64,000 nucleotides of DNA from Candidatus Heimdallarchaeum aukensis (GCA_021513695.1 CP084166.1:2784001-2848000), one strand, 5' to 3'; counted from the stretch's first letter, positions 10,272-39,676 are shown. A program made the numbers and translations. Notes: generated by a model not told the origin, from the letters alone.

Positions 10272-10500
10272 TGTAATTAAATTACAATGTTAAGTATAAA
10301 GATGTGTAATACTTAAGAATTATAGTTAACTAAGTTAGGATATTTTCTCAATAACATGGTCTACTTTTTCCTAAATTCCGATTTAGATTAAAAATCGGAA
10401 GAAGTAGTAAGTTTAGTCGGTGGAAAAAAAGAAAGAGAAAGAACAGCGTAAAAGCTGGTCTAACTAACTTAACTTGCTAACTTATTTTCCAACGGACGGG
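10272..10500 (-). ncRNA. candidate TnpB omega-RNA (reRNA) / IS right-end region
   Basis: Non-coding stretch immediately 3' of and overlapping the tnpB end. It contains stem-loops and is placed by analogy with known IS605 omega-RNA loci. Confidence 0.3.
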
Positions 10501-11736
10501 GTGAACCACTGCAGCCCAGACTATCCCGTAGTTAGACATAACAGAGAATAACGTGGGGAATACTTTGCGACCGATATTACCTGCAGAGTTGATATCAGCA
10601 TTAATTTTTAATCCTCTGGTACTGATGAACAGTCCACGGTGAGTTCTTTTGCCAGCATAATGGGGGTGAAAAGCTATCTCTTCATTATCTAAGAAACTGC
10701 AGACAGAGGTGTAGGACTCTTCGGTAGGAATAACTTTTATCCCTTTTTCTTCTGCTTTGTAAGTGATTTTGTCAATGAGGGATTTAAAGGGGATAAAAAC
10801 AAAGGTTTGATTATTTTTCTTTCCCATATTCACTTTCTGTTTCCATCTGGGGTTGTAACCTATAACTATCGTATCAATGTTTTTTTCTAAACAGTAGTCT
10901 ATTATCTTCCTACTTGCTTTATGGAAATAGTCAGCTATTTTACACATTCGTTCTAACTGGAGAGTAAGCATTTTTCTTCCCCAGGTGGTTAATCCTTGCT
11001 TGTCATAGATTGACTGTAATTTTGCCCTACGTTTATTAAACCACTGATTAACAGCTTTAATGGGTCTACCATTTATCAGAAAACCTTTTTCACCAGGAAT
11101 AGTGGTTAACCCGCCTACAAGGTTATTCACTCCCAGATCAAGAGCTAGAACTCTTTCTGCATGTCGTTTTTTTCGTTCTTCTATCTCTTTCTCGTAAACT
11201 ATCTCTAATTTAAATTTCGTTCCCATAGGTATAAGACGGGCAAACTTCACTTTCGTTGAAGGACACAGTCTTGTAACTATCTTTAGTCCTACACGTTTAG
11301 GGAAAGAGATAAAAAATTTTTCTTTTTCTTGCTCTTTTTCTTCTTTAATTTTCACTTGAGAGTTAGTAAAATAGATTATAGCAAGTCCATCTTTCTTCTT
11401 CTATTTTGGAGGACGGGGTTTACCATTAAACTTTTCTGGTTCTTTTTTGCATTCTTCTAAAGACCTAAAATACCCTTTCCACGCTAAACATAGAAACTTT
11501 ATCGTCTGTTGTGCCGTATGACCAGGTAGTGCTGTGTAGGTCGGGTGATACCTTAAAATATTCATCAGTTCGAACTCTCTCGTGAAATATTTACTTTTTC
11601 TTAACTGATACTTAATAATGTAATTTGCTTGATTATACAAGTTTTTTACCTGGTGTGCCAACTGCTTTAGAGTGATCGATTCTTTCACCCATATTTCCTC
11701 AGTTCGGTACACCTTTTTCCTCATTTTTTCTTTCAT
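10477..11736 (-). pseudogene. tnpB: RNA-guided endonuclease TnpB (OrfB_IS605), interrupted
   Basis: The N-terminal ORF 11401..11736 (HTAQQTIKFL...FNGKPRPPK) and the RuvC-bearing C-terminal ORF 10477..11355 (LALDLGVNN, PTEESYTS, ADINSAGNI) are separated by an in-frame stop or frameshift near 11356-11400. The zinc-finger cysteines are missing. Confidence 0.75.
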
Positions 11737-12015
11737 TTATTTTTACTTTTTTCCCTATTTAAACTCCTCATCTTCCCTCCTCTCCTCTCTTCTCCTCTCC
11801 TTTATTCTTCTTTTTTCCCCCTCTTCTACAACTTCGTAATTTCGGAAAAAGTAAACCATCAGAACTTCTTTTACGCATTTTTTAGTAATTGTTGAACTTA
11901 AGAGTTTCAAGAACTTTTGTAAAGAGAAATAATTTTGAACATTTATTGTAAAAATACTTTAAATAGTGAATTGACTTCTGTTGTACAGAGAGAATTATAT
12001 AAAGAAGTGAAGAAA

Positions 12016-13113
12016 ATGCCTGAAAAAAAGCAAACAAAGGAAACAAAAAGTGCAAAAACAAAGAAGACATTAACTAAGGAAGACTTGAAAGAACCTCAAG
12101 ATGATAATTGGATAGACGAAATTGTAAGTAAAAAAGAAAAAACTGTTGTTAAAGAAAAAATCAGTGACGCTCCAATAAGATCAATTCCTGGAATTGGTCC
12201 TGCTGTTGCAGAAAAATTGATGTCTGCTGGATATTTAACCCTTACTTCTGTAGCTCATGCTTCTCCTATGGAATTAGTAGAATTTTGCGAAATTGGAGAA
12301 CAAACTGCGAATAAAATTATTTCAGCTGCTAGAGCTCAAGTGGGTATTGGCTTTAAAAAGGCTAGTGAAATCCTAAATCTTCGAGAAAAAGTTTCAAAAA
12401 TCTCAACTGGTAGTAAAGCACTTGATTCTCTATTGATGGGGGGGATAGAAACTAAATCAATTACTGAATTGTCTGGAGAATTTAGAACAGGAAAAAGTCA
12501 AATATGCTTTCAACTTTGTGTAAATACTGCTTTAGATAAAAAGCATGGAGGACTGGAAGCAGGTGTTATTTTCATTGATACTGAAGGAACTTTTAGACCT
12601 GAAAGGATTGTTGATATGTGCGCAAGGTTTGGAAAAGATGTAGATACAGAAGAAGTGCTAAACAGGATTAATGTAGGTAGAGCTTATAATTCTGATCACC
12701 AAATGCTTCTTGTTCTTGAAAGTCCTAAAATTATAACAGAAAACAATGTAAAACTTATTGTAATTGATTCTCTTACCAGCCACTTTAGAGCCGAATATAC
12801 AGGAAAAGGAACTATATTAGAAAGACAACAGAAGTTGAATAAGTTTTTGCATCAACTTCTACGTTTAGCTGATGTATATGATCTGGCTATTGTTGTAACA
12901 AACCAAGTACAAACAAAACCTGATATTTTAATAGGTGAATCAACTACTCCCATCGGAGGAAATATTGTCGCACATTCATGTACGACCAGAATATTTCTTA
13001 GAAAGGGTAAAGGCGATAAGAGAATCGCAAGAGTAATTGATAGTCCAAGTATTCCAGAAACAGAAGCAATTTTCAGAATAACAAAATTAGGAATAGAAGA
13101 TGTAGGAGAGTAG
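12016..13113 (+). CDS. radA: DNA repair and recombination protein RadA
   Basis: HhH region IPGIGPAVAEKLMSAGY, Walker A GEFRTGKSQ, and RecA-fold motifs. The ORF is open from 11935, and the ATG at 12016 was chosen as the start. A K/E-rich ~55-aa extension precedes the HhH region. Confidence 0.85.
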   Translation: MPEKKQTKETKSAKTKKTLTKEDLKEPQDDNWIDEIVSKKEKTVVKEKISDAPIRSIPGIGPAVAEKLMSAGYLTLTSVAHASPMELVEFCEIGEQTANKIISAARAQVGIGFKKASEILNLREKVSKISTGSKALDSLLMGGIETKSITELSGEFRTGKSQICFQLCVNTALDKKHGGLEAGVIFIDTEGTFRPERIVDMCARFGKDVDTEEVLNRINVGRAYNSDHQMLLVLESPKIITENNVKLIVIDSLTSHFRAEYTGKGTILERQQKLNKFLHQLLRLADVYDLAIVVTNQVQTKPDILIGESTTPIGGNIVAHSCTTRIFLRKGKGDKRIARVIDSPSIPETEAIFRITKLGIEDVGE

Positions 13114-25640: not shown

Positions 25641-26097
25641 TCTCTTGTTTTAATTTGACTATAACAAATATAACCTTATTGGTTTTTCTTTGCTCTATGA
25701 AATAAGCTAATAATAATTTACATACTTAGACTTAATGATAACTTATTATTTGTTAATAGTTATCAAATTTTTTTCAACTCTCTTTTTCTTTTATCATTTT
25801 ACTCACTTTTCATTGCATTACTTTTTAAAACAATTTTACTTTTTAGTTTCTCTTTATTTTATCTAGTAAGTCGTATATAGTTTATGTAATGGCATTTTGT
25901 CGGAAGTACTGGGGCTTGAAATTACTGTTTGCAAAATAAGTTTTTTACACTATGATGTAAAAAAAAATTAAGTGAAAAAAAGTTAGGTGCTTATAAAAGG
26001 TAAAAGAGTTTTAAATGGAAAGAGAATCTTTAAGAAAAATTTTCTTGTTTAAGTACTAAAGTCTCTAAAAGTTATTAGAAGAAAATAGGGGATAATA

Positions 26098-29000
26098 TTG
26101 GCAGATCTAAAACTATCAGAAAATGCATTAACAGTACTACAAAAAAGGTACTTACTAAAAAATGAGAAAAACGAAGCAATTGAAACTCCAGAACAGATGT
26201 TTGAAAGAGTGGCAAAAAGTATAGCTTCAAGTGAAGAAGAAAAAAAAGAATTTTATGAATTGATGACTTCTTTAAGATTTCTACCTAACAGCCCTACTCT
26301 TATGAACGCAGGAACGAAGCTAGGTCAACTATCAGCTTGTTTCACTGGAGAGCAAGTAATAATCACAGCTGAAGGAAATAAGCAAATAAAAGATATTCAA
26401 ATTGGAGATTTAGTCCTGACAGCTTCAGGTAATTTTAGAAAGGTTACCCAAACTATGCAAAGAAAAGTTGACAAAAGATACATTATTGATGTTTTGAAAC
26501 TACCTAACTCTACTCTTTCTGTAACAGAAGATCACCCTATTCTTACCTACAAAAATGGAAAAATTAAATGGAGTTTAGTAAAAGAATTAAGTAAAAACGA
26601 TTTTGTAGCTTTATCATACCCAAAGGAAATTGAAGATATTTCTTCAATTAATGTTATAGATTACTTATCTGATAGAGATTATAAAGTAAAGGATGGTATG
26701 ATATTAAATAAAAATACAAAAGTTGGAATAGAATCAGATGAAATAAGTGATCAAGAAATTCCAATAAGAAATAAAATAGAAGTAGATGGAGAGTTTCTTA
26801 GATTTTTAGGTTATTATGCTAGTGTGGGAGAACTAGATAAAAAAATAGTAAGATTTGCTTTTTCAGATAAAGAGATGGATTATGTTGAAGAAGTAATATC
26901 AATTGCAAAAAGTAAATTTGAATTAGATGCAAGAATAGAAAACTCTGATGGAAATATAGTGATTGTGCAATTTTATTCATCCATACTATCTGAATTCGTT
27001 AAGAAAGTCATAGGAGAAGGAAACAACAAAAGAGTTCCCATATGGATATTGAAATTACCTCCAGAAAAACAAGAAAACTTTGTTTTAGGGTGTTTTAGAG
27101 GAGATAACTCTTTATTTTCTAGTAGTTATATGCTTGATGCTCGTTTATCTGCGTGTAATGATAATTTAGTATATTCAATATGGATCATGTTAATGAGAAT
27201 GGGGATAGTTCCCAATCTTGATAAATCCCCTATTCCAAAAGGTGAAACCACCTATTCTTATTCTTGTTATATTGGAGAAACAGAAAAGAGCGATTCCTTT
27301 GTAGAGATTCATGGAAAAGACGGTAAAGGAATTTCTCAATTATCTTTACAAAAATTAAATCATATAATTGTCAATGATACTGTTTTTCTCCCTATACGAA
27401 GTATCGAATGTATCGAAGAACCTGTGACTGTTTATAATCTAGAAGTAGAGGAGGAACATACATATGTTGCAAATTTTGTTTCAGTTCACAATTGTTTTGT
27501 ACTTCCAATAGATGATTCTCTTCCCTCCATTTTTGATGCAGTGAAAAAAGCGGCATTAATACACCAAAGTGGAGGAGGATGCGTTGCTGAAGGAACAGTA
27601 ATACCTACAGAAGAATTCGGTTTTATACCCATTGAAAAGATACCTGGATTTGAAAACATTCCTTCTGACGAACAAGGACATGATTGTGAACCTTTCACTG
27701 TTTATTCATTTGATGAGGACAAAGAATCTTTCACAAAAGGAACAGTAACAAAACTTTGGAAATTCAAGAAAAATAAATATTTGAGCATTAAATTCGGAAC
27801 AGAAGGAGTAATAGAAGTCACACACTGGCATCCTTTCATAGTTTATGTCCCTTCTGAAGAGAAAAAGAAAGGAGGATATTATACAGAAAAAAGAGCAGAT
27901 GAATTGAAAGTTGGAGATCTGTTGGTTAGTCCCTCTACCCATAAGATAACTGAAACTTCTAGTATTTCCGATGTACACAAGGTTAAAGTAGAAGAAATAA
28001 AAGAAATAGAAGAAGAAAAAGTATTTTATGACTTTACAGTACTTAAATATAATAACTATCTAGCAGGTTCTAAACAATTTACAGTTATCCATAATACAGG
28101 TTTTAGCTTTAGTAATATTAGACCAAAAAATGATGTAGTCAAAACTACTGGGGGGGTAGCTTGTTTTCCTGAAGATGTAAGGATTTATACTAACAAGGGA
28201 TTATTAACAATCAAAGATATAATCCAATCTGATCAACCAATTAAAGCTTTGACTCATGATGGATTCCACGAAATAATAAATAAATACGATAACGGAGATG
28301 CTGAAGTTTACAGACTTATTACATCTAATGGATATTCAGTTAAGGCAACCTCTACTCATAAATTTTTAACAATAGAAAATAATGAGTTGGTACTAAAGCC
28401 TCTTAATAAACTTCAAGAAGGAGATTATGTTCTTCTTTTTTCTACTTTTGAATCTGTTGATGAAAAAGAACCATTTAAGCTATCTCCTATTACTGACGAT
28501 GGTCAAACTTTTGATGAAATTTATCTTGATGAAGATCTTGCCTATTTCATAGGATTAACTTATGCAGATGGACATATTATTGATGATGGAAGACATTATA
28601 GCGTAAGAATCACTTTAAACAAGAACCAAATACGTATAATCGAAAAAATAAAGAAAATAGTTCAAACTAAGTTTGACTATGATTTGAAAGTCTATGAGCG
28701 TAAAAATGTAAATAAAGTTGAACTTGTTCTACACGGAAAAAGATTTGTAAAATTGTTAAAAGAAAATAATTTACTTAAAGAAAAATGTGAAAATATTCGT
28801 ATTCCAGAATTATTATTTCAAAGCCCAAGAAATGTCCTAAGCTCATTTATTGCAGGATACTTCGATGGTGATGGTCATGTAAGTAAAAGCGGGCGAATTA
28901 GCATTAAAACAATATCCAAACAAATGAGTGAAGATTTTTCATTATTGATAACGCGGTTAGGTGTACTATCTACAACTCATATTAGTCCCCCTATTTATGG

Positions 29001-32000
29001 AATAAGAAGAAATAAAAAAAGTTACAGAGTTTCAATCCCAACAGCTCTCTTCAAGAAAAGATTTGTAGAACAGCTTTCAAAATACTCAATAAAACTAGAA
29101 AATTATACATTGAAAGAAGGATCTACAAATAAACTTTTTTCTTATCCGTTTAACATCTTAACTCATGTTGGGAATCCTTCCAAGAGGGCAGATATTGCTA
29201 AAACAGTAATACCTTATAACAGAAAGAATACCTATCGTAAAGCTATTCTACGGATTCTTCAAAATTCTAATAAATATGGACTTACACCCGAAGAAATTGC
29301 TTTCTTAAAGAAACTAGAAAATCTTTACCCTGTAAAGATAAAGTCTATTAAAAAAGAAGGAATTGAACGTGTTTATAATCTCGAAGTTAAGAATATCCAT
29401 CGACTTGTGGCTAATGGTTTTTATGTTTCAAATTCAGGCCCCATAAGCTTTATGGAAGTCTTTAATGCTGCAACAAATACTATCAAACAAGGGGGATGTA
29501 TTGCTGCTGAGAGTTTAGTAAGAACTACAAATGGTGTTCTTCCTGCTGGTGATTTACTTAATTGTCCTCCTCTTGGCGAAAACAACACTCAAGAATTAAT
29601 CTATGATGGAGAGTCGTATAACAATGCTTTTCTGTCTCTGGATAACGGTTTTGCGGATGTATTAATTCTTGAAACTGAGCTGGGTTTGACTTTAAAAGCT
29701 ACATATAATCATTTAATTGCTACAGTAGATGAAGACGGGAATATAGTATGGACTGAGGTTGAGAAGATTAAGAAGGGCGATTGGGTTGTAATTGTATTAG
29801 GGGGTCACGTTGGACAAAAAATCTTCCTCCCAAAAATAGAAAATCAACATCATAATGCTAATCCCATTAAAATCCCTGAACAATTTAATGCTGAGCTTGC
29901 CGAAATCTTAGGTTTGTATATGGCTGATGGATGTATTAGTACTGGTGGTCGAATCATCTTTAGTGTCGATAATAAGGATTTAGATCTCATTAAAAGAATC
30001 GAATCTTTAATGAAAAAAGTATTTAATTTAAAACTTGGAAGAATAGAGGATAAACAAACTTACTCGGATGTTATTTTCTATTCTCGTGATCTATGCGACT
30101 ATTTCAGTAAAATGAATTGGAAAAAAGAGTCATCATCAGAAGCTTTTATCCCTCAAGAGATTTTTATTTCTGAACCAGAAATAGCAAAAGCATTCGTCCG
30201 AGGGTTGTTTGAAGGTGATGGTAATGTTCGTTCTGAAGGATATCCAAGGCTTTATTCAACATCTAAAACATTAATTGAACAGACACAACAACTTCTTTTA
30301 GGCCTTAACATTGTTTCTTCTGTAATAAAGGAAGAAGATAGAAGTAATAGTTTAGGTGATTTACCTCTATATGAATTATCAATAATTCCAGAAAGAAGTA
30401 TTATAAAATTCAAAGAAGAAATTGGTTTTATATCAAACAGAAAAAAACAGTTGCTGGAATCTAGGTTTACGGGCAAAAAGTTCGAACAATCAGATATTAT
30501 TCCTAATCAAGGCAAAAAACTGAAAGAGCTATATAGTTATGTTGGTGCAGGGACCAGTAAAGGGAGAAATAAAAAAGGAGCAAACAGAGAATTTTATAGA
30601 GCAATATACCATTATATAAGCGAGAATCCATCTTCTAAAAGAAATTTGACAAGAAAAAGGTTAAATTATTTGATGAAAAATTTCGAACAAGTTAAGAATT
30701 CCAAGCATTTCCAACAGATGTCTGATCCAAAATACTATTTTACAAAGGTTATAGATGTTAAAGAAAATCGAACTTATACAATGGACTTCGAGGTGCCAGA
30801 ATCAAGCAAATTCGTAGCAAATGGTTTCTTAGTACATAATCGTCGTCGTGGGGCTAACATGGGTATCCTTCGTGTTGACCATCCTGATATCATGTCTTGG
30901 ATTACTTGTAAAGAAGACCAGACCAAATTTACTAATTTTAACATTTCTGTTGCAGTTACCTCTGAGTTTATGCAAGCAGTGGAAGAAAACAGAGACTATG
31001 ATCTTATCAATCCTCGCACAAAGAAAGTTGTAGGTAAACTCAATGCTGCTGAAGTTTTTAACAAAATTGTTGAGATGGCTTGGAAAAATGGCGAGCCGGG
31101 TATAGTTTTTATTGACCGTATGAACGAATTCAATCCTACCCCTGAAGTAGGAGATATTGAAAGCACTAATCCTTGTGTAGTGGGTGATTCATTAATATCT
31201 ACAGAATTTGGATTAATGAAAATGCGTGATTTAGTCTCCAAGTTTCCTGAAGGCTCAGTAAAAATAACTACTGATAACCGTGTTCCTCAACAAATATTAA
31301 CATCTGGAAACCAAGTGCAGTTGTTGGATACAAAAACTCAAGGGGTATCATTGAATACTATTACACGTGCTTTCTCTACTGGAATAAAAGATGTATACAA
31401 ACTAACTACAGTGTCAGGTTACGAGTTGAAAGCTACTGGAGACCATAAAGTACTAACCAATGAAGGCTGGGTACAAGTAAAAGACTTAGATGTTAAAAAA
31501 CATAGAGTAAAGATACAATCAGGAGAAGGAGTTTTTAACAGTGTAAAAGAGTTACCCATCAAAGTCGAAAATGAAATAACTGGTGAGAACGGAAGAAAAT
31601 ATAGTTTTAATTTACCAAAAACATGGTCGAAAGAGTTAGGTCATGTACTAGGTTGGCTAGTAGGAGATGGCTGGATAAGGACAGGAGATAAGAATAGAAG
31701 AGTAGGATTTACTTTTTCAAAGAAAGATGAAGAAGTGTTAAAGTATCTCAAGGATGTATTAAATAAATGGTACAACAAACAAATTAATGAAATAAAAAGA
31801 GAAACAAATGTTTATCATTTAAGTTACCATTCAAAATATTTTGTTGATTTCTTCATAAATTTGGGAGTTAAACCAGAAAAATCAGCAAAAAAGGTTGTAC
31901 CTGAGTCAATGTTTCTAGCTACTAAAGAAGCAGTAATTGCTTTCCTACAAGCACTTTTCTCTGCAGATGGAACAATACGTTACTCAAAGAAATCTTCAAG

Positions 32001-33783
32001 CGAATGGATAGCCCTTTCATCAAAAAGTAAAGAATTGCTAAAAGGAGTACAACTGTTACTGTTAAACTTGGGTATCAAATCAAGAATATTTGATCGAACA
32101 AGAAAAAGAAGAGAAAGAACATTCAAGTACATAGATAAAAATGGTTCACTAAAGTATTACAACAGTGATGGAATTCTCTATGAACTGGGAATATTCGGCA
32201 AAAATATTGATATATTCAAGGAAAAAATAAATTTCTTACAGAGGGAGAAAAAAGAAAAACTAGCTAACCTTAAACCAAGAAAAAGAAGAGAAGTCATCTT
32301 TGAAGAGAAGATAAAGAGTATAAAATATGTTGGAAAGGACGAAGTATATGATTTAACTGAACCAAGAACATTAAGCTTCATTGCTAATGGAATAGTAAGT
32401 TTAGATTGCGGAGAGCAGCCCCTTCTCTCTTATGAGTCTTGTAATCTAGGATCAATTAATCTTGTAAGGCATGTTAAAGATGGAGAGATAGATTGGTCTT
32501 TACTTGAATCAACTATCCGTACAGCTGTTCGCTTTTTAGATAATGTTATCGATCGCAATGTTTACATTATTCCTGAAATAGAAGAGATGACCAAAGCCAA
32601 TAGAAAGATAGGCCTTGGGGTAATGGGTTTTGCTGATCTACTTGTTGAGCTCGGTATAAAATATGATACAGAAGAAGCATTGGAAATAGCTGAAAAAGTT
32701 ATGTCTTTCATTCAAAAAGTTGGTCGAGATGAATCTGTTAAATTAGGTGAAGAAAGAGGTAGCTTTCCTAACTTTGATAGAAGTATTTACAGAGGAAAGT
32801 ACAAAGCCATGAGAAATGCAACAATCACAACAATCGCTCCTACAGGAACTATTTCTCTTATTGCTGGGTGTTCAAGCGGTATTGAACCTTATTATGCAAT
32901 AGCTTTTGTGCGAAATATACTAGGTGGAAAGAAACTTTTTGAAATTAATCCCATCTTCGAAAGAATAGCTAAAGAGAAAGGATTCTACTCTGAAGAGCTC
33001 GTAGAAAAAATTTCTTCTGTTCATTCAATACAGAAATTGGATGAAATACCTGAAGAAATAAGAAAGTTGTTTGTAACAAGCCAAGATATTTCTCCAGAGT
33101 GGCACGTAAGAATCCAAGCAGCTTTCCAAAAATACACTGATAACGCTACTAGCAAAACAATTAATTTTTCGAGAGATGCTACAAAAGAAGATATCGCCAA
33201 AGCTTACAAACTCGCCCATAAACTAGGTTGTAAAGGTGTTACTGTTTATCGTGATGGTTCAAGAAAGTATCAAGTATTATCAACAAAGACAAAAAAGAAA
33301 AAGAAAGAAAAGCCAGTAGTTACTTCAGCAAAAGTTGTACCTAGAGCAAGACCAGAAATAACAACAGGTAGAACCCATAAAGTTAGAAGTGGTTGTGGTA
33401 ATCTTTACGTTACTGTTAATCAAGATGAAAATGGAGATATTTTTGAGGTATTTGTTCAAGTAGGTAAATCTGGAGGGTGTATCACCTCTCAAAGCGAGGC
33501 GATTGGAAGATTAATTTCTCTTTCACTTCGTTCGCAGGTTTCAGTTGAATCCATTGTGAGACAACTGTCAGGGATACGCTGTCCTAACCCTAGTTTCTAT
33601 AAAGGAAAAAGTATTCTCTCTTGTGCTGATGGTATAGCTTTAGTGCTTGAACAATATATACAAGGAAATCCTAACGTACGTGAATCTAATGGTTCTATCG
33701 TTTGTCCTGACTGTGGAGGAGTTTTAGCTTTTTCAGAGGGTTGCTATACTTGCACAAGCTGTGGTTATAGTAAATGTAGTTAA
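26098..33783 (+). CDS. nrdJ: adenosylcobalamin-dependent (class II) ribonucleotide reductase precursor carrying five inteins
   Basis: Extein segments: N-terminus LSENALTVLQKRYL..PEQMF, LSA|CFVLPIDDS, HQSGGG|TGFSFSNIRPK, TTGGVA|SGPISFMEVF, RRRGANMGIL, TNP|CGEQPLLSYESCNLG, and a C-terminal Cys4 zinc ribbon. Exteins total ~721 aa. The start codon is TTG. Confidence 0.85.
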   Translation: MADLKLSENALTVLQKRYLLKNEKNEAIETPEQMFERVAKSIASSEEEKKEFYELMTSLRFLPNSPTLMNAGTKLGQLSACFTGEQVIITAEGNKQIKDIQIGDLVLTASGNFRKVTQTMQRKVDKRYIIDVLKLPNSTLSVTEDHPILTYKNGKIKWSLVKELSKNDFVALSYPKEIEDISSINVIDYLSDRDYKVKDGMILNKNTKVGIESDEISDQEIPIRNKIEVDGEFLRFLGYYASVGELDKKIVRFAFSDKEMDYVEEVISIAKSKFELDARIENSDGNIVIVQFYSSILSEFVKKVIGEGNNKRVPIWILKLPPEKQENFVLGCFRGDNSLFSSSYMLDARLSACNDNLVYSIWIMLMRMGIVPNLDKSPIPKGETTYSYSCYIGETEKSDSFVEIHGKDGKGISQLSLQKLNHIIVNDTVFLPIRSIECIEEPVTVYNLEVEEEHTYVANFVSVHNCFVLPIDDSLPSIFDAVKKAALIHQSGGGCVAEGTVIPTEEFGFIPIEKIPGFENIPSDEQGHDCEPFTVYSFDEDKESFTKGTVTKLWKFKKNKYLSIKFGTEGVIEVTHWHPFIVYVPSEEKKKGGYYTEKRADELKVGDLLVSPSTHKITETSSISDVHKVKVEEIKEIEEEKVFYDFTVLKYNNYLAGSKQFTVIHNTGFSFSNIRPKNDVVKTTGGVACFPEDVRIYTNKGLLTIKDIIQSDQPIKALTHDGFHEIINKYDNGDAEVYRLITSNGYSVKATSTHKFLTIENNELVLKPLNKLQEGDYVLLFSTFESVDEKEPFKLSPITDDGQTFDEIYLDEDLAYFIGLTYADGHIIDDGRHYSVRITLNKNQIRIIEKIKKIVQTKFDYDLKVYERKNVNKVELVLHGKRFVKLLKENNLLKEKCENIRIPELLFQSPRNVLSSFIAGYFDGDGHVSKSGRISIKTISKQMSEDFSLLITRLGVLSTTHISPPIYGIRRNKKSYRVSIPTALFKKRFVEQLSKYSIKLENYTLKEGSTNKLFSYPFNILTHVGNPSKRADIAKTVIPYNRKNTYRKAILRILQNSNKYGLTPEEIAFLKKLENLYPVKIKSIKKEGIERVYNLEVKNIHRLVANGFYVSNSGPISFMEVFNAATNTIKQGGCIAAESLVRTTNGVLPAGDLLNCPPLGENNTQELIYDGESYNNAFLSLDNGFADVLILETELGLTLKATYNHLIATVDEDGNIVWTEVEKIKKGDWVVIVLGGHVGQKIFLPKIENQHHNANPIKIPEQFNAELAEILGLYMADGCISTGGRIIFSVDNKDLDLIKRIESLMKKVFNLKLGRIEDKQTYSDVIFYSRDLCDYFSKMNWKKESSSEAFIPQEIFISEPEIAKAFVRGLFEGDGNVRSEGYPRLYSTSKTLIEQTQQLLLGLNIVSSVIKEEDRSNSLGDLPLYELSIIPERSIIKFKEEIGFISNRKKQLLESRFTGKKFEQSDIIPNQGKKLKELYSYVGAGTSKGRNKKGANREFYRAIYHYISENPSSKRNLTRKRLNYLMKNFEQVKNSKHFQQMSDPKYYFTKVIDVKENRTYTMDFEVPESSKFVANGFLVHNRRRGANMGILRVDHPDIMSWITCKEDQTKFTNFNISVAVTSEFMQAVEENRDYDLINPRTKKVVGKLNAAEVFNKIVEMAWKNGEPGIVFIDRMNEFNPTPEVGDIESTNPCVVGDSLISTEFGLMKMRDLVSKFPEGSVKITTDNRVPQQILTSGNQVQLLDTKTQGVSLNTITRAFSTGIKDVYKLTTVSGYELKATGDHKVLTNEGWVQVKDLDVKKHRVKIQSGEGVFNSVKELPIKVENEITGENGRKYSFNLPKTWSKELGHVLGWLVGDGWIRTGDKNRRVGFTFSKKDEEVLKYLKDVLNKWYNKQINEIKRETNVYHLSYHSKYFVDFFINLGVKPEKSAKKVVPESMFLATKEAVIAFLQALFSADGTIRYSKKSSSEWIALSSKSKELLKGVQLLLLNLGIKSRIFDRTRKRRERTFKYIDKNGSLKYYNSDGILYELGIFGKNIDIFKEKINFLQREKKEKLANLKPRKRREVIFEEKIKSIKYVGKDEVYDLTEPRTLSFIANGIVSLDCGEQPLLSYESCNLGSINLVRHVKDGEIDWSLLESTIRTAVRFLDNVIDRNVYIIPEIEEMTKANRKIGLGVMGFADLLVELGIKYDTEEALEIAEKVMSFIQKVGRDESVKLGEERGSFPNFDRSIYRGKYKAMRNATITTIAPTGTISLIAGCSSGIEPYYAIAFVRNILGGKKLFEINPIFERIAKEKGFYSEELVEKISSVHSIQKLDEIPEEIRKLFVTSQDISPEWHVRIQAAFQKYTDNATSKTINFSRDATKEDIAKAYKLAHKLGCKGVTVYRDGSRKYQVLSTKTKKKKKEKPVVTSAKVVPRARPEITTGRTHKVRSGCGNLYVTVNQDENGDIFEVFVQVGKSGGCITSQSEAIGRLISLSLRSQVSVESIVRQLSGIRCPNPSFYKGKSILSCADGIALVLEQYIQGNPNVRESNGSIVCPDCGGVLAFSEGCYTCTSCGYSKCS
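26338..27492 (+). mobile_element. intein 1 (385 aa) with degenerate LAGLIDADG-like motifs
   Basis: Begins CFTGEQ and ends VSVHN, followed by the +1 Cys of extein CFVLP. It is inserted just before the conserved LSxCF cysteine. Confidence 0.75.
27580..28095 (+). mobile_element. intein 2 (172 aa mini-intein)
   Basis: Begins CVAEGT, has block B VTHWHPF, and ends TVIHN with +1 Thr of TGFSFS. No endonuclease domain is present. Confidence 0.75.
28162..29433 (+). mobile_element. intein 3 (424 aa) with LAGLIDADG homing endonuclease
   Basis: Begins CFPEDV. LAGLIDADG motifs are LAYFIGLTYADGH and IAGYFDGDGH. It ends GFYVSN (no penultimate His) with +1 Ser. Confidence 0.75.
29497..30840 (+). mobile_element. 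intein 4 (448 aa) with LAGLIDADG homing endonuclease
   Basis: Begins CIAAESLV. Motifs are LGLYMADGC and VRGLFEGDGN. It ends FLVHN with +1 Arg of RRRGANMG (an unusual +1 residue; the boundary is inferred by extein alignment). Confidence 0.65.
31174..32406 (+). mobile_element. intein 5 (411 aa) with LAGLIDADG homing endonuclease, inserted at the thiyl-radical Cys (TNP|C)
   Basis: Begins CVVGDS. Motifs are LGWLVGDGW and LQALFSADGT. It ends ..IVSLD and is followed by CGEQPL, so the terminal residue is apparently Asp rather than Asn. Confidence 0.65.
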
Positions 33784-33848: not shown

Positions 33849-34928
33849 GTGAAAGAACGTTTAATGTTGATTTGGTTTGATGCAGTAACAGCAAAAGAGC
33901 CATTGTTGTTTGACGCAATAGCTAAAGAATTGGAAAAAGAAGGACATGAAGTATTTTTCACTTGTAGAGAATATGATTATGTTTCTTCACTTTTTGAACT
34001 GTTAGGACGAAAAGTAGAAGTGTTTGGTAAGCACGGAGGAAAAACACTATATGGAAAGCTCATTGCAGGAAATGAGAGAATAAAGTTACTTGCTGAATAT
34101 ATTAATAATTTAGATAAAAAACCAGATTATCATATATGTTTTGGCTGTCCAGAGTCAACAAGAGTAGCGTTCGGGTTAGGTATCCCTGTAATTAATATTA
34201 ATGATTCTCCACATGCTTGGGCAGTAGCTAAATTAACTGTGCCTTTATCGAAATATTTAGTGTATAGTGGTTGTATAAAAGAAGAAGAGTGGTTAAAGTT
34301 AGGTGCAGTAAAAGAACAATTGTGCCCATATAACGGGATAGATGAAGTTGCTTGGTTAAAATCGTTTGAACCTAATGAAGAAGTTCTTTCACTGTTGGGT
34401 CTATCTAAAGAAGATCACTTTATTGTTGCAAGACCAGAAGAAAGCAGTGCAGCTTATATGTTAGACGATAACATTACTTCTTCAACTTATTTAGATGTTA
34501 TTCTGGATGAGTTATTAAAAACATATAAAGGAAAGGTAGTAGTTTTTCCAAGATATCAAAAACAAAAAGAATTGTTACAAGAACGCTATGAAGAAAAAAT
34601 CATTGTACCACCGAAAGCTGTAGATACTCTCTCACTTTATTATTATGCTGATTTATGTATAACAGGTGGGGCAACAATGGCACGGGAATCTGCAGCTATA
34701 GGAACTCCAGCGATATCTTATTTTCCTAGAGAACTCGATGTGCTGAAATACATATCAGAAACAGGAATCCCTCTTTATAATGAATACACAATCTCTGATG
34801 CAATAAAAAGGGCAAAAGAGTTATTATCATCTAAAAATATTAAGGATAAATTGAGACAAAAGACTAAGAGCATATTATCTCAAATGGAGTCTCCTATAGA
34901 TAAAGTGATAGAATTGATTAAGAATTAA
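33849..34928 (+). CDS. DUF354-family protein (glycosyltransferase/epimerase-like fold)
   Basis: The N-terminus (M)LIWFDAVTAKEPLLFDAIAKELEKEGHEVFFTCREYD matches the characteristic DUF354 start (IW.D..N.PHV.FF.PII.ELE..GHEV). Confidence 0.55.
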   Translation: MKERLMLIWFDAVTAKEPLLFDAIAKELEKEGHEVFFTCREYDYVSSLFELLGRKVEVFGKHGGKTLYGKLIAGNERIKLLAEYINNLDKKPDYHICFGCPESTRVAFGLGIPVININDSPHAWAVAKLTVPLSKYLVYSGCIKEEEWLKLGAVKEQLCPYNGIDEVAWLKSFEPNEEVLSLLGLSKEDHFIVARPEESSAAYMLDDNITSSTYLDVILDELLKTYKGKVVVFPRYQKQKELLQERYEEKIIVPPKAVDTLSLYYYADLCITGGATMARESAAIGTPAISYFPRELDVLKYISETGIPLYNEYTISDAIKRAKELLSSKNIKDKLRQKTKSILSQMESPIDKVIELIKN

Positions 34929-36484: not shown

Positions 36485-39400
36485 ATGGGGTTTGAACTTA
36501 TGAAAAAAAGGATATTTTTAGCGATAGCAATAATTATTGCTCTATTTCCGATTTATCATTCTGGAGTTAATACTCAAGCAACAACTCAACCGGTTGTTAA
36601 TAATAATCAAATAACTCCTGAAGAAATCGGAGTAGGAAGTAAACTAACCTATCAAATAACACAATTTGAATTAGGTTCTGGTTTTGATCAATTATTACAA
36701 GACATAACACAAGATCCAGAAGCACCTGATATCGAGTTTGGTTATGACGGCAGTTTAGTAGGAAGTGAAATATGGTTTTATATCAGTCTTGAAGACCAAC
36801 TGCAATTCTTCCAATACAATTACTCTGACTGGGAGTGGACTAAAGAAAACATTACTCAAAAGAATGTAATGCAAGTTTTAGCTGGAATAAAATTAAGTGA
36901 AGACTTTTCAGCTTTTGCAAACCTATCCCAACTTAATTATCCAGAAGATGCAGTAAGACAAGATGAAGCTTATTATTATGATTCTTGGCCAATGTCTCAC
37001 TTTGAAACACCAATAACAAGTGACGATTTCTGGAATCCATTCAACGAAGGTTTTATAGACGGATTTAATTGGGGATTTTCAGATGAGATAAATGAATATG
37101 ATTGGGCATGGTTCAATTGGCCTAGTCCCGATGAGTATTATGACATGTATTGGTTTGCTCGAGACTTTGGACAAATGTGGGGATATGACACTGGAAGAGA
37201 AGCAGCTATGAATGCAAGAAATGAAAACCCTGGTGATCCTTGGGGAACAGCTTGGAATGATGCTAACTCTGCTAGTGGAGCTTTTAAAGTAGGTTTCTTA
37301 GAAGGCAGAGATGATGGATATAATGAAGGAAAAGATGATTATGTAAATAATAATAGAATCCCAGATAAAACCTTTAGTAATCCTTACGACGCAACTAATG
37401 ATATAACTGATATAGGTAAAAGGCGTGGATATGACGCTGCTTGGCCAGTATATTATGATGCAGGATACTTATATGAAGGAGCACAAGAATATTTCAATGA
37501 CAGACTCTACTGGGAACTATATTGTGATACTTGGGATACCTATCCTGGTGGTTACCTAGACGGATTTAGAGATGGATATTATACTGGTGTTTGGGATGGA
37601 CAATATGACCATGACTATGGAAGCTATGGAGATAACTTCTATCCTCCAGAGGGATATTGGGATCCTCGTGATGAATATCAATGGGGATATAATGATGGTT
37701 TAGCAGAAGGGTATCAATATGGATACGATGACGGTTACAACCAAGTAAATGATTATGAACAATATATCTGGGGTATGGAATCTTATATCTGGAATGCACA
37801 TGAAGATGGTTTTCAAGTTGGAGCTCAAGATTATATAAATAATATTGGTTATGATAATTCAACATTTACATTGCCATTTTCTAGTCCAGCTGATATGTAT
37901 GAAGAGGGAGCTAATTTCATTTATGAAATGATGTATCCTAAAGCTTATGATGATGGATGGAAATATGCTTTTCTTGTAGATAGAGATGGAGACGATTTGA
38001 ATTGGTTAATGCATGAAGGACCATTCTATTACATGTATTTACCTGATGTGATTTTAACTTTACAATCTGGTTCAGTTCTACCTGTACCTACAGATATGAC
38101 AATGTTCAAAGAATTGAACATTAGCATGATGGATTACGAAATCGATTATGATTATGGTGAAAACACAGATCTCTTTACAGAACACTTTACACCTTTCAGT
38201 ATATATGCTCCTGAAAGTGATTGGGCAGAGCTAGATACTTGGGATTGGGCTTTTGACCCAGAAAGTGACATGCCAGGAGTTGCAACAACTATAGATGGAA
38301 ACATATTTGAAATGGTATTCTATTGGGAAGAAGAAAGTGGAGATATTACTTTCGAGCTTACAATTCGTTATGATATGACTACTGGAGTTTTGCAATATTC
38401 TGGTTTTAGTGTAGATTTCACAACAGAAGCAGATATGTACATTAATGTTGCAATGGAGTATGAATCAGATACACAAATCAATCTACCAACACCTGATCCA
38501 ACTTCATGGTCTTACTTAATAGATACATTTAGCTTTACTTATGAATTACCTGATGACGCTCCACCTGAAGTTATAGATGGACTAAATAATTTCAAGAATG
38601 GGGGAGAAGATGCTGTTGGAAACGCATTCATGGACGTCGATTGGATTCAACATCTTGGTCTATGGAATGAATATAACGTTACATTCAAAGATCCTAACAA
38701 CCCAACTGATGCATCAGATCCAGTTACTATAATGCAACCAACTTTATCTCCTGGAATACAAATATTGCCTGATTGGGACCTTTGGGGCGGAATTATGCAA
38801 ACTGGAGATTCTTATTTGGCTATGTCTGAATGGATAGGTAATGCTGTAGATATGTTAAGCGATGCTAACCCAACTTTTGATGCATTTAGAAATGAACTGT
38901 ACTATGAAGTGAGTTCATACCATGATTCAACCAATAATATAATGTATCTCTATGCAGGTATATCTGGAGGATATGAATTACGTGTTGAAATGCTAAATGG
39001 AGATTGGGAATGGGAAGAAACAACAGTCTCATTATACTTCAAACTTGTTTTATGGACAGCCTATGATTATACCACTGGTATTTTCTTAGGAGCTGGTGTA
39101 GAAGGAACAATAGATGAAACATTCACTTCAAATATTCCAACCTCACCTCAGTTCACACTCTATGCAGATATTGATATCAGAATCAGAGCAGATTTAATAT
39201 CAAGTATAACAAGTATAACTGACATTCTAACCTTTGCTGAAATGCCAGAAAAAGACACCGAAGCACCAATCATTTCAGATGTAACTTACAGTCCAGATAA
39301 ACCAACAGAAGAAGATGTTATTACTATTAGTGCTAATGTAACAGATGATAATGGAGTTTGTTCAGTAATCTTACACTACAAGAATGACACATCTGAATGG

Positions 39401-39676
39401 CAAGAAGTAGAAATGGTAGATGATGGAACAGGAATCTACAGCGCTGAAATAGGTCCATTTGCTGCTGATACTGTTGTAGAGTTTTATATTACTGCAACAG
39501 ATATGACAGCTGCACAAAATGAAGCAACAGCAAATAATGGCGGAACAAACTATACAATTGAAATCAAAGGAAAAGGTGTTCTTGGAATTGGATTCAATTT
39601 TGTAGATGTTCTCATTATGGGTCTAGGATTGATCAGCATAGCTTCTCTCCTTACATTAGTAAAGAGAAAGAAATAA
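36485..39676 (+). CDS. large acidic, aromatic-rich secreted/cell-surface protein with a C-terminal TM anchor
   Basis: N-terminal signal-anchor (FLAIAIIIALFPIY). About 1000 aa rich in D/E/W/Y/G with repeated (D/E)GY..G(Y/W)(D/N) elements. An Ig/Fn3-like module lies near the C-terminus. A terminal hydrophobic helix is followed by KRKK. Confidence 0.6.
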   Translation: MGFELMKKRIFLAIAIIIALFPIYHSGVNTQATTQPVVNNNQITPEEIGVGSKLTYQITQFELGSGFDQLLQDITQDPEAPDIEFGYDGSLVGSEIWFYISLEDQLQFFQYNYSDWEWTKENITQKNVMQVLAGIKLSEDFSAFANLSQLNYPEDAVRQDEAYYYDSWPMSHFETPITSDDFWNPFNEGFIDGFNWGFSDEINEYDWAWFNWPSPDEYYDMYWFARDFGQMWGYDTGREAAMNARNENPGDPWGTAWNDANSASGAFKVGFLEGRDDGYNEGKDDYVNNNRIPDKTFSNPYDATNDITDIGKRRGYDAAWPVYYDAGYLYEGAQEYFNDRLYWELYCDTWDTYPGGYLDGFRDGYYTGVWDGQYDHDYGSYGDNFYPPEGYWDPRDEYQWGYNDGLAEGYQYGYDDGYNQVNDYEQYIWGMESYIWNAHEDGFQVGAQDYINNIGYDNSTFTLPFSSPADMYEEGANFIYEMMYPKAYDDGWKYAFLVDRDGDDLNWLMHEGPFYYMYLPDVILTLQSGSVLPVPTDMTMFKELNISMMDYEIDYDYGENTDLFTEHFTPFSIYAPESDWAELDTWDWAFDPESDMPGVATTIDGNIFEMVFYWEEESGDITFELTIRYDMTTGVLQYSGFSVDFTTEADMYINVAMEYESDTQINLPTPDPTSWSYLIDTFSFTYELPDDAPPEVIDGLNNFKNGGEDAVGNAFMDVDWIQHLGLWNEYNVTFKDPNNPTDASDPVTIMQPTLSPGIQILPDWDLWGGIMQTGDSYLAMSEWIGNAVDMLSDANPTFDAFRNELYYEVSSYHDSTNNIMYLYAGISGGYELRVEMLNGDWEWEETTVSLYFKLVLWTAYDYTTGIFLGAGVEGTIDETFTSNIPTSPQFTLYADIDIRIRADLISSITSITDILTFAEMPEKDTEAPIISDVTYSPDKPTEEDVITISANVTDDNGVCSVILHYKNDTSEWQEVEMVDDGTGIYSAEIGPFAADTVVEFYITATDMTAAQNEATANNGGTNYTIEIKGKGVLGIGFNFVDVLIMGLGLISIASLLTLVKRKK

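Follow-up and report, generated by a model that had tools for sequence, protein, structure and literature searches.

Five inteins in the class II ribonucleotide reductase of a Heimdallarchaeum-like archaeon, and a conserved intein clade that lacks a +1 nucleophile

The gene considered here raises the question of how a reductase interrupted by five inteins is restored to a working enzyme when one of them is followed by arginine at the +1 position, where reviews hold Cys, Ser or Thr to be indispensable in all intein classes. We begin with the host gene. In the 64-kb stretch of DNA that was analysed (the window, for which Rfam and tRNA scans are empty), an uninterrupted open reading frame of 2561 codons plus stop runs on the + strand from 26098 to 33783, in DNA of 31% G+C. 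The encoded precursor of 2561 aa consists of six exteins that sum to 721 aa (2163 nt) and five inserts that sum to 1840 aa (5520 nt), the inserts being 385, 172, 424, 448 and 411 aa long in order, and all in-frame. The first-pass annotation had described an nrdJ gene that starts with TTG, ends in a zinc ribbon and gives up 5.5 kb of its 7.7 kb to five inteins, and each part of that description holds. The TTG at 26098 is the sole usable start codon, since the frame is closed by a TAG four codons upstream (26086-26088) and the homology to NrdJ begins from residue 2-3. The twelve nucleotides that abut the start codon (26086..26097, + strand), TAGGGGATAATA, read as this TAG and then a Shine-Dalgarno-like element rich in G, and the TTG together with the identical 12-mer is kept at a sister-lineage locus (L051).

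Joined in order, the exteins match the NCBIfam NrdJ equivalog NF006417 with 1156 bits (cut-off 961) in a single stretch (residues 3-721 on profile positions 9-759 of 759), TIGR02504 NrdJ_Z with 738 bits (cut-off 400), and the Pfam families Ribonuc_red_lgN, Ribonuc_red_lgC (2e-139) and TSCPD. In the alignment with the T. maritima NrdJ (PDB accession code: 1XJE, 413 bits), Cys134, K202-Q203...R207 and N320-P-C322-G-E324 are all aligned; we take Cys134 to be the redox-pair Cys, and Cys322 in N-P-C-G-E to be the thiyl-radical Cys of the ten-stranded barrel. Extein 1 (aa 1-80; 26098..26337) is the all-alpha Ribonuc_red_lgN domain of Pfam and ends in GQLSA. It is followed by extein 2 (29 aa, CFVLPIDD...HQSGGG; 27493..27579), extein 3 (22 aa, TGFSFSNIRPKNDVVKTTGGVA; 28096..28161) and extein 4 (21 aa, SGPISFMEVFNAATNTIKQGG; 29434..29496), the last with the N-terminal half of the motif KQGGxRRGA (T. 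maritima 202-205). Extein 5 (111 aa; 30841..31173) runs from RRRGANMG to ESTNP, and extein 6 (458 aa; 32407..33780) holds the remaining barrel, the TSCPD domain (from ~33361) and the zinc-ribbon Cys4 tail CPDC...CTSC (CxxC...CxxC; 33703-33780), all on the + strand. Four of the five inteins lie within 152 extein residues, with spacer exteins of 21-29 aa between them. Identified in this way from its sequence, the gene is the chromosomal nrdJ of a Candidatus Heimdallarchaeum-like Asgard archaeon, coding for a class II ribonucleotide reductase that is predicted to be adenosylcobalamin-dependent. With an extein dN/dS of 0.046 both N-terminal and C-terminal of intein 4, the host gene is, on the sequence measure, functional and its exteins are under strong purifying selection.

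The five inserts score 51, 55, 60, 46 and 68 bits with Pfam Intein_splicing, all above the gathering score of 35.8. Their junctions are LSA/CFTGEQ and VSVHN/CFVLP (intein 1), SGGG/CVAEG and TVIHN/TGFSF (intein 2), GGVA/CFPED and FYVSN/SGPISF (intein 3), KQGG/CIAAE and FLVHN/RRRGA (intein 4), and TNP/CVVGD and IVSLD/CGEQ (intein 5). Each of these ten junctions, which the first-pass annotation had given by their extein sides, occurs exactly once. Two checks had been suggested, among others, with that description. The search for intein blocks finds, in all five, Cys1, a Thr-x-x-His block B (TEDH, THWH, TSTH, TYNH and TGDH in order) and an Asn or Asp C-terminus (HN, HN, SN, HN and LD); the search for intein-free alleles finds sites 80, 109, 131 and 152 empty in close relatives and site 263 empty in T. 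maritima. Compared across these alleles, the sequences place the five inteins at conserved active-site or specificity positions. With Cys1 in five of five, none has at its N-terminus the non-nucleophilic residue by which inteins of class 2 and of class 3 are marked (together with a Trp-Cys-Thr triplet in class 3), and inteins 1 (Cys), 2 (Thr), 3 (Ser) and 5 (Cys) have the +1 residue that class 1 requires. We read the splicing mechanism of all five from the residues. Inteins 1, 2 and 3 would follow standard class 1 splicing, in which a thioester at Cys1 is attacked by the +1 Cys, Thr or Ser, the terminal Asn cyclizes and an acyl shift completes the bond; intein 5 would take the class 1 route also, with Asp cyclizing in place of Asn.

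Four of the inteins can be described individually before the fourth is taken up. Intein 1 (26338..27492, 385 aa) has Cys1, block B TEDH (26524-26535), a terminal VHN and a +1 Cys, which is the equivalent of Cys134. Its two LAGLIDADG motifs (GYYASVGE at 26803-26832, and 27085-27108) are degenerate, as first described: compared with the family consensus GYYxSEG, the Glu of motif 1 has become Val, in this lineage only among 17 aligned alleles at site 80, and Pfam finds no LAGLIDADG domain in this intein. The endonuclease, having lost its catalytic Glu, is thus inactivated as judged from these alleles, and the splicing residues are kept. Intein 2 (27580..28095), with Cys1, block B THWH, a terminal IHN and a +1 Thr, is indeed the 172-aa mini-intein that had been proposed. 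It aligns with both ends of same-site alleles of 371-465 aa and the entire LAGLIDADG region is gone, which identifies it as a deletion-derived mini-intein whose endonuclease domain was lost cleanly. Intein 3 (28162..29433, 424 aa) has Cys1, block B TSTH, a terminal VSN, a +1 Ser, two intact LAGLIDADG motifs (28546-28575 and 28849-28878) and Pfam matches to LAGLIDADG_3 (64 bits) and Hom_end. It has no penultimate His, and every allele at site 131 ends in SN/S. Intein 5 (31174..32406, 411 aa) has Cys1, block B TGDH, two intact motifs (31648-31674 and 31948-31974; LAGLIDADG_3, 80 bits) and an atypical C-terminal Leu-Asp before its +1 Cys, the equivalent of Cys322. Both inteins 1 and 5 therefore sit directly before the two key cysteines, as had been claimed. 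The Leu-Asp ending appears to be nothing unusual: inteins at site 263 in our sample end in LD (17), VD (3), HQ (19) or RQ (8), Asp and Gln making up nearly half; other inteins with C-terminal Asp or Gln have been described (Amitai, Dassa and Pietrokovski 2004; cited in PMC2807308, PMC4031507); and cyclization of Asp is recognised as a variant of the third step of splicing (PMC4031507). A pair of LAGLIDADG motifs with both catalytic acidic residues is found in inteins 3, 4 and 5, in agreement with the three paired-motif inteins of the first-pass annotation; intein 1 has the Glu-to-Val change and intein 2 has no such domain.

The next question is whether the differing states of the endonucleases are reflected in the divergence of the inteins. 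The closest homologue, 90% identical and sharing all five inserts and the gene order, is found in Ca. Heimdallarchaeaceae / H. endolithica PR6 (accession codes: CP084167.1, UJG44997.1), where the gene neighbourhood, the TTG start and the upstream element are all as in the window. A look-up of the window's protein by exact sequence gives no match, apparently because its own genome is absent from the collection or because the start codon was called differently there. Against PR6, the exteins have a dS of 0.41 (CI 0.33-0.49), and inteins 1 to 5 have values of 0.32, 0.39, 0.06, 0.14 and 0.22 in order. The ordering repeats against a second assembly; the seven neighbouring genes range from 0.28 to 1.1. 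Over both comparisons, intein 1 (0.32-0.36) is indistinguishable from the exteins and intein 3 stays at 0.06-0.15. Intein 2, with 172 codons only, has a dS of 0.27 against the sister-lineage locus (pS CI 0.14-0.31), and the exteins, as well as intein 5 in part, have intervals that overlap with its own, so that its rate of divergence is less well determined. For inteins 3, 4 and 5 the synonymous divergence is two to seven times below that of the exteins. Since a divergence so far below that of the host gene indicates recent transfer, we infer that these three moved by homing between the two Heimdallarchaeum lineages after the lineages had split. Gene conversion, and not endonuclease-driven homing, could explain part of their low dS, and nrdJ overall is somewhat less diverged than most of the neighbouring genes. 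We consider it very probable, from the sequence, that the 2561-aa precursor must lose all five inteins to become the 721-aa enzyme, and that the inteins have reached different stages in the cycle of homing. All stages in the life of an intein are represented in this one gene, from active inteins that were recently transferred, through one with a dead endonuclease, to one from which the endonuclease has been deleted.

We turn our attention to intein 4, whose +1 Arg is the most interesting point at the locus. The junction IKQGG/RRRGANMG had been given in the first-pass annotation and it exists, but it was treated there as ordinary and the arginine was missed. Intein 4 (29497..30840, 448 aa, 'type B') has Cys1, a clade-specific Arg9, block B TYNH (29701-29712), two LAGLIDADG motifs (29908-29934 and 30199-30225; LAGLIDADG_3, 78 bits) and a terminal LVHN. 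The codon that follows (30841..30843) is CGT, for an Arg that aligns to Arg206 of T. maritima. With Arg where Cys, Ser or Thr is needed, this intein cannot follow the class 1 route. Both of its junctions are fixed by the empty site-152 alleles of close relatives, which read KQGG-R-RRGA at the same length. The AF2 model (pLDDT 89.6) has its best structural matches in the TliVMA intein (PDB accession code: 7QSS) and PI-PfuI (1DQ3), and no bacterial intein-like (BIL) structure is among the 50 Foldseek matches listed against the PDB. Canonical inteins at the same site ('type A') are 27-40% identical to it, with Cys1 and His-Asn in shared columns. By homology, predicted fold and position it is an intein, and on its residues it lies outside mechanistic classes 1, 2 and 3.

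It is also not alone. At least 40 members of its clade, 40-97% identical, are found among the matches listed, in hosts from very different archaeal phyla (Asgard, DPANN, Thermoplasmata, Methanoperedens and other archaea). Over 40 members, conservation reaches 90% or more at Cys1, T-x-N-H, the two LAGLIDADG motifs and LVHN. In 40 GTDB species genomes the reading frames are all intact and the +1 residue is Lys (25), Arg (12) or Ile (3), encoded by ten different codons; recoding or a sequencing error at this position is ruled out by that variety. A search of 1.84 billion proteins, through their representatives at 50% identity, gives 21 site-152 clusters with K, R, I or V at +1, and 22 other site-152 clusters that have S, T or C there, as do all relatives in other hosts. 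The antepenultimate residue of block G tracks this division, being hydrophobic in the one class and Ser or Thr in the other (Fisher p = 2e-11). Near the junctions, Arg9, Asp49, Gly103-His104, Leu445 and Val446 are invariant in the clade and missing in type A inteins. The clade also has a conserved segment of ~70 aa, of which 67 residues are deleted in the PR6 copy, leaving an intein of 381 aa (the deleted segment corresponds to 30472-30672 in the window). None of the eight residues after His-Asn is Ser, Thr or Cys in the window, and the genome loci that were checked agree with two exceptions. One relative, P0144, does have Ser after a block G of this type (LLVHN), with the insertion one residue upstream. 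The co-cultured organism Nanobdellota YN1 has a clade member as well, a divergent one in which the block B His and the first LAGLIDADG motif are altered. Since that copy is altered and YN1 is without nucleotide biosynthesis, for which it may draw on its host (PMC11420986), we refuse it as proof of function. In the open-access full-text literature we find no report of inteins with Lys or Arg at +1, of nucleophile-less inteins, of a fourth class or of Asgard inteins, and a widespread, conserved archaeal intein clade without a +1 nucleophile is apparently undescribed.

How, then, could intein 4 splice? The likeliest answer, on which our judgement is evenly balanced, is ligation through attack by an alpha-amine, by analogy with the type A BIL domains. 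Cys1 would form a thioester at Gly152; cyclization of Asn448 would free the alpha-amine of Arg153; and this amine, kept near by the already folded reductase, would attack the unhindered Gly thioester directly. The same order (thioester, Asn cyclization, aminolysis by the alpha-amine) has been proposed for type A BIL ligation (PMC4031507). BIL domains in vitro mostly give cleavage, with less ligation (PMC4031507, PMC7664689), and in a normal intein the change of the +1 nucleophile to Ala blocks splicing (PMC2807308), so that efficient nucleophile-free ligation by a true intein would be unprecedented. Type A BILs (Dassa et al. 2004; Aranko et al. 2013; PMC4031507) share with intein 4 the Cys1, the His-Asn end (LVHN/Arg here) and the lack of a nucleophile in the C'-flank. 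Unlike intein 4, which is archaeal and LAGLIDADG-bearing, they are bacterial, free of homing endonucleases and a separate sequence group. They are located in variable, non-essential and often secreted proteins, whereas intein 4 occupies an invariant motif of an essential enzyme, has empty alleles and is homologous to canonical inteins at its own site.

We tentatively extend this reading to the clade as a whole (at least 21 clusters at 50% identity), although we would put it at slightly less than an even chance: its members may be mobile, endonuclease-bearing inteins that splice without a side-chain nucleophile at +1, and may thus form a fourth mechanistic class. Such a class, with direct alpha-amine attack on a Gly thioester, would be marked by Arg9, a hydrophobic antepenultimate residue in block G and K, R, I or V at +1. 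It would mirror classes 2 and 3. These too are natural inteins in which one canonical nucleophile is missing and co-varying residues compensate, but there it is the N-terminal one, and Ser, Thr or Cys is still required at +1. The absence of drift to Ser or Thr in the clade, P0144 aside, counts against a +1 side chain that is simply irrelevant, and is a point against the proposed route. A Lys side-chain amine as the nucleophile was rejected because Arg, Ile and Val occupy the same position, and the ~70 aa segment was rejected as a needed splicing helper because it is deleted in the PR6 orthologue. The requirement for a +1 nucleophile limits the use of inteins in protein engineering, since a scar residue remains. 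If the clade does join Gly efficiently to Lys, Arg, Ile or Val, a real intein can evolve to ligate without trace and with no nucleophilic side chain, and intein 4 and its relatives would offer a starting scaffold for scarless protein ligation.

An unlikely alternative is excision of intein 4 without rejoining: the thioester at the N-junction is hydrolysed, Asn cyclizes at the C-junction, and residues 1-152 and 153-721 form a non-covalent two-chain reductase. Where a Hint domain has no +1 nucleophile, cleavage products predominate (PMC4031507, PMC7664689), and a T+1A intein mutant undergoes double cleavage (PMC2807308). The conservation of Cys1, TxxH and HN would be equally expected if the intein only cleaves. 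A reductase in two pieces also has a parallel in phage Aeh1, whose NrdA is split by a homing-endonuclease gene and reportedly stays active. The cut would, however, break in two the invariant motif KQGG-x-RRGA (T. maritima K202-A210), which we take to be allosteric specificity loop 2, where free chain ends seem costly. Moreover, the empty alleles of close relatives are contiguous, and among the loci gathered for the other comparisons no lineage with the gene split at this point is seen. Were intein 4 only to cleave, it would be a naturally occurring means of making a ribonucleotide reductase of two chains.

Joining of the two exteins by some other chemistry or helper, either a different internal nucleophile or a trans-acting archaeal factor, strikes us as rather improbable. 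The invariant residues that the clade has as its own near the junctions and its conserved ~70 aa segment speak for such a mechanism. That segment is gone from the Ca. H. endolithica copy while the exteins remain strongly constrained, which implies that the host's function does without it, and a lineage-specific helper is hard to reconcile with a clade spread over such different phyla.

The third possibility, that intein 4 simply stays in, because the gene is a decaying pseudogene backed by another reductase or because an insert of 448 aa is tolerated, is very improbable. It would account for the missing nucleophile, and the presence of a clade member in YN1, which lacks nucleotide biosynthesis and may live by scavenging (PMC11420986), would suit it. 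Against it stand the low extein dN/dS on either side of the intein, the intact reading frames in all 40 genomes examined and the disruption of an invariant active-site motif by the insert. In addition, a dead element would lose Cys1, block B and His-Asn, which are kept with few exceptions or none in a clade whose members may be only 40-50% identical.

That the boundaries are mis-assigned, and that an ordinary class 1 intein with a hidden Ser, Thr or Cys is present, is scarcely credible. P0144, with the same type of block G followed by Ser and its insertion one residue upstream, is the case that would suggest it. Canonical inteins at the site nevertheless share the Cys1 and His-Asn columns with intein 4, and any re-registration breaks the invariant extein motif; re-registered junctions were rejected, there being no Ser, Thr or Cys in the next eight residues of the window. 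An assembly chimera of several alleles, as the source of the five-intein architecture, can be dismissed almost outright, since the same five inserts recur in the same order in the circularised CP084167 and on at least three further independent contigs, with identical flanking gene order.

The first-pass annotation had called five inteins in one host exceptional, and this stands only in part: five equals the published record, but the window is not the sole case. Inteins per NrdJ were counted by phmmer multi-domain mapping, with the window as a control in which all five are recovered; BLAST-based counting was dropped, as it undercounts through loss of the 21-29 aa exteins between adjacent inteins. 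Besides PR6 and Heimdallarchaeaceae MAG proteins (accession code: MHA1865681.1 and others), which are orthologues sharing the five sites, five inteins are carried by at least two other archaeal proteins, P0005 and P0013 (the latter from Odinarchaeia); nine proteins have four and twenty have three. P0013 uses a distinct nearby site, YES/CNLGS, and is the only protein for which this is confirmed, the site bins '263' and '~275' being mostly one site split by fuzzy domain ends. The maxima published in the open-access literature are four inteins in one protein previously and five in the Prp8 of Anaeramoeba (PMC10710043). The four-intein host of Trichodesmium erythraeum (Liu et al. 2003) is also a ribonucleotide reductase; the present one has five and is archaeal. 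It ties the published record and exceeds the published prokaryotic maximum of four, and it is not unique in public data.

The Pyrococcus NrdJ model NF006207 spans two intein regions, the first matching intein 2 and the second intein 5 (1.8e-39), which is consistent with inteins 2 and 5 being allelic to the Pyrococcus inteins, as judged from profile coordinates and not from a direct alignment. Neither region corresponds to the nucleophile-less KQGG/x insert. The PR6 genome paper (PMC8813620) mentions neither inteins nor the reductase. Deposited records name reductases of this kind 'LAGLIDADG family homing endonuclease' or 'TSCPD domain-containing protein', and in some the start has been put inside an intein; such misnamed and mis-started records are a caution for annotation: the deposited PR6 protein, of 2376 aa, starts within intein 1 and bears the second of these names.

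We begin by considering the nrdJ gene of the window (26098-33783, + strand), which forms a single unbroken frame of 2561 codons. The first-pass annotation had read it as a class II ribonucleotide reductase with five inteins; this main reading is correct by the sequence and profile evidence, and the ten junction strings it listed are each found exactly once in the precursor. The six exteins (80, 29, 22, 21, 111 and 458 aa, 721 in total) alternate with five inteins of 385, 172, 424, 448 and 411 aa (1840 aa, 5520 nt). The spliced exteins match the NCBIfam equivalog NF006417 (vitamin-B12-dependent ribonucleotide reductase) at 1156 bits against a cut-off of 961, in one stretch from residue 3 to 721 (profile positions 9-759 of 759), and Pfam assigns them an all-alpha domain, a barrel (2e-139) and a TSCPD domain; the contiguous NrdJ alignment on which the earlier reading had been staked is therefore obtained. 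A CxxC...CxxC tail closes the C-terminus. The sole possible start is the TTG at 26098, with a TAG in frame four codons 5' of it and a G-rich Shine-Dalgarno-like element (TAGGGGATAATA) just before it in DNA of about 31% G+C. The NrdJ similarity begins at precursor residue 2-3, and the sister lineage, Ca. Heimdallarchaeum endolithica, keeps both the TTG and the upstream 12-mer.

All five inserts exceed the gathering score of Pfam Intein_splicing and contain Cys1 and the block B T-x-x-H. LAGLIDADG_3 matches inteins 3, 4 and 5 and gives no Pfam match in intein 1, while intein 2 (172 aa) has no room for an endonuclease. The inteins end, in order, with HN, HN, SN, HN and LD; a missing penultimate His (as in intein 3) and a C-terminal Asp (as in intein 5) are both accepted variants (PMC4031507; PMC7664689), and nearly half of the N-P|C-site inteins in the sample gathered here end with Asp or Gln. 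The exteins align to the solved Thermotoga maritima enzyme (1XJE) at 413 bits, which allows the five sites to be placed on a known structure. Intein 1 sits before Cys134, one of the redox pair, intein 2 at 162/163, intein 3 at 184/185, intein 4 at 205/206 within the K202-Q203-G-G/S-x-R207-R-G-A motif, and intein 5 before Cys322 of N-P-C-G-E, the thiyl-radical cysteine. The stretch 202-210 is allosteric specificity loop 2.

We turn our attention to intein 4, which the first-pass annotation rightly counted as an intein while overlooking the nature of its +1 residue. Its last residues are ...NGFLVHN, and the +1 position is occupied by Arg (CGT, 30841-30843). In all described intein classes a Cys, Ser or Thr at +1 serves steps 2 and 4 (PMC4031507), and Ala in its place blocks splicing (PMC2807308). 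AlphaFold predicts the structure of intein 4 with confidence (pLDDT 89.6, pTM 0.90), and the best structural matches of the model are endonuclease-bearing archaeal inteins: TliVMA 7QSS (TM 0.70), PI-PfuI and PI-PkoII. Intein 4 is thus normal by its fold, its position, its mobility machinery and its ancestry, yet lacks the +1 residue that the textbook mechanism requires. With respect to open-access full text, it appears to be an undescribed intein variant.

How, then, may intein 4 join its flanks? Among the Hint domains described so far, only the type A bacterial intein-like (BIL) domains combine Cys1 and a terminal His-Asn with the lack of a +1 nucleophile. For these, the proposed route runs from a thioester through Asn cyclization to a last step in which the freed alpha-amine attacks the thioester, and in vitro cleavage usually dominates (PMC4031507; PMC7664689). 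Intein 4 is not a BIL domain, because it is archaeal, bears an endonuclease, interrupts an invariant motif and shares homology with canonical inteins, but by analogy it may work like one. We give an even chance to splicing by this route, in which a thioester would form first, Asn would then cyclize, and the freed alpha-amine would finally attack the thioester. The Gly at -1 would leave the thioester unhindered and so favour the route, and the flanking exteins, as adjacent strands of one folded loop, would keep the new amine beside the thioester. The main rival, also familiar from the BIL domains, is double cleavage to yield a two-chain reductase, which we consider unlikely. That some unknown chemistry or a helper joins the flanks is a doubtful proposition. 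It is very improbable that intein 4 is not excised: extein dN/dS between the window and the sister lineage is 0.046, overall and on either side of intein 4 taken separately, by which measure the host gene is clearly under selection, and constraint extends to the splicing regions of intein 4 itself (dN/dS 0.18). Mis-assigned boundaries are next to incredible, for on the sequences the boundaries are not in doubt, since intein-free close relatives read KQGG-R-RRGA and T. maritima likewise has Arg here.

The homologs inserted at the same site (after spliced-extein residue 152) form two homologous groups, 27-40% identical, that share Cys1, T69, H72, both LAGLIDADG motifs, H447 and N448. Type A inteins (about 456 aa) end with ...[VI][ST]HN and have Thr or Ser at +1; type B inteins (about 448 aa) end mostly with ...LVHN and have Lys, Arg or, rarely, Ile or Val there. 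Type B forms a deep clade under constraint. Its 40 members among the first hits are 40-97% identical, with at least 90% conservation of Cys1, T-x-N-H, both endonuclease motifs and LVHN. The intein frame is intact in all 40 GTDB species genomes (including Heimdall-, Hermod-, Hod- and Promethearchaeota, Micrarchaeota, Aenigmatarchaeota, Woesearchaeota, Methanoperedens, Thermoplasmata and Methanomassiliicoccales), where the +1 residue is Lys in 25, Arg in 12 and Ile in 3, written with ten different codons. A profile search over 1.84 billion representative proteins, counted as 50%-identity clusters that are not phylogenetically independent, gives twenty-one clusters with K, R, I or V at +1 and twenty-two with T or S at the same site; relatives in other proteins or sites have S, T or C in every case. 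The residue three before the junction tracks the +1 class (hydrophobic versus Ser/Thr; Fisher p = 2e-11, uncorrected for phylogeny), and Arg9 is specific to type B.

The sole exception, the database protein P0144, combines a type-B-like GLLVHN with a canonical Ser, the insertion lying one residue upstream (IIKQG|C...HN|SFRRGA), and could represent an evolutionary step between inteins that use the nucleophile and those that lack it. A divergent type B member (KQGG|C...FLIHN|KRRGA, +1 Lys) is one of two inteins in the ATP-cone-bearing NrdJ of Nanobdellota archaeon YN1 (L053; AP031373.1, 2001-6950), a DPANN archaeon grown in co-culture, whose genome is 773 kb long and whose paper leaves the gene unmentioned. 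Because its block B His is replaced (TYDE), its first LAGLIDADG motif is altered and YN1 lacks nucleotide biosynthesis, we regard it as a test system and not as evidence. Within intein 4 of the window, a 67-aa segment (GKKFEQSDIIPNQ...RKRLNYL, 30472-30672) has several type-B-invariant residues, yet is cleanly deleted in the sister lineage's PR6 genome. The segment may serve the endonuclease as a module for recognising DNA; if so, the sister intein 4 is beginning to degenerate.

The best database match to the window NrdJ (90% identity) is annotated Candidatus Heimdallarchaeaceae, and its 90%-identity cluster contains the NrdJ of the circularised PR6 genome (CP084167.1). Because the surrounding gene order is identical (two small minus-strand genes, nrdJ, DUF354, aminotransferase, an uncharacterised protein of about 1060 aa and two TldD/PmbA genes), the two loci are orthologous and belong to sister lineages. 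Among close relatives, ranked by C-terminal extein identity, occupied and empty sites form a patchwork, with empty alleles at sites 80, 109, 131 and 152. At the intein 1 site the first endonuclease motif is normally GYYxSEG; GYYASVG, in which the catalytic Glu is lost, is confined to the window and its sister. Intein 2 aligns with both ends of same-site alleles of 371-465 aa, the entire endonuclease region being cleanly absent.

Synonymous divergence (dS) was compared with one sister lineage in two assemblies. Against PR6 it is 0.41 for the exteins (bootstrap 95% interval 0.33-0.49), 0.32 for intein 1, 0.39 for intein 2, 0.06 (0.03-0.09) for intein 3, 0.14 (0.09-0.19) for intein 4 and 0.22 (0.16-0.29) for intein 5. 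The ordering is repeated with the second assembly, against which seven neighbouring genes have dS of 0.28-1.1 and intein 2 has 0.27, on 172 codons and with an interval overlapping those of the exteins and intein 5. We infer that inteins 3-5, with intact endonucleases, moved between the lineages after their split and that at least intein 1 was inherited vertically; gene conversion without endonuclease action is a possible cause of the low values. Against the second assembly, the exteins (dS 0.41) and the DUF354 gene next to nrdJ (33849-34928; 0.28) lie below five other neighbours (0.66-1.1), which could reflect co-conversion of flanks during homing or a local recombination event.

Inteins were counted by phmmer multi-domain mapping of the 120 best hits, a procedure that recovered all five window inserts as a control. 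The sister NrdJ carries the same five inteins, and five are also found in two database proteins, P0005 (2755 aa), with a site set partly unlike the window's, and P0013 (Odinarchaeia, 2839 aa); nine of the hits have four, twenty have three and the remainder two, with about nine distinct insertion sites in use. The stated earlier maximum per protein is four (Trichodesmium ribonucleotide reductase; archaeal MCM), and the five inteins of Anaeramoeba Prp8 were reported as remarkable (PMC10710043). The earlier description of five inteins as exceptional thus holds in that the number equals the published record and is undescribed in open-access full text, though it is not unique; among multi-intein NrdJ proteins, that of the window stands at the upper end of the range known so far. 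Neither inteins nor the reductase come up in the Heimdallarchaeum genome paper (PMC8813620). The deposited PR6 protein (UJG44997.1, 2376 aa, 'TSCPD domain-containing protein') begins within intein 1 (MQRKVDKRYII...) because the TTG start was missed. Multi-intein NrdJ proteins are publicly mis-annotated (PR6 locus L001; P0121, P0001, P0002, P0013), some as 'LAGLIDADG family homing endonuclease'.

The remainder of the window, which encodes RadA, pilus genes and a RING-finger protein, has the look of an ordinary Asgard chromosome. No tRNA genes or Rfam families (gathering threshold) were found across the 64 kb, and Pfam at E <= 0.001 gives nothing for the ORFs at 36485-39676 (+, 1063 aa) and 48824-51970 (-, 1048 aa). 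The former has a conserved counterpart in the sister lineage (1055 aa, dN/dS 0.17) and is therefore a real gene of unknown function. A TnpB-like ORF of 292 aa (10477-11355, -), short for TnpB, has OrfB_IS605 and Cas12f1-like TNB domains and may be the remnant of an IS200/IS605 element. RadA (Rad51-family recombinase, 392 aa; 11935-13113, +), a common intein host in other archaea, is intein-free here. The RING finger (zf-RING_2, just at the Pfam cut-off) is C-terminal in a 340-aa protein (6242-7264, +) and is a eukaryote-like signature expected for Asgard archaea.
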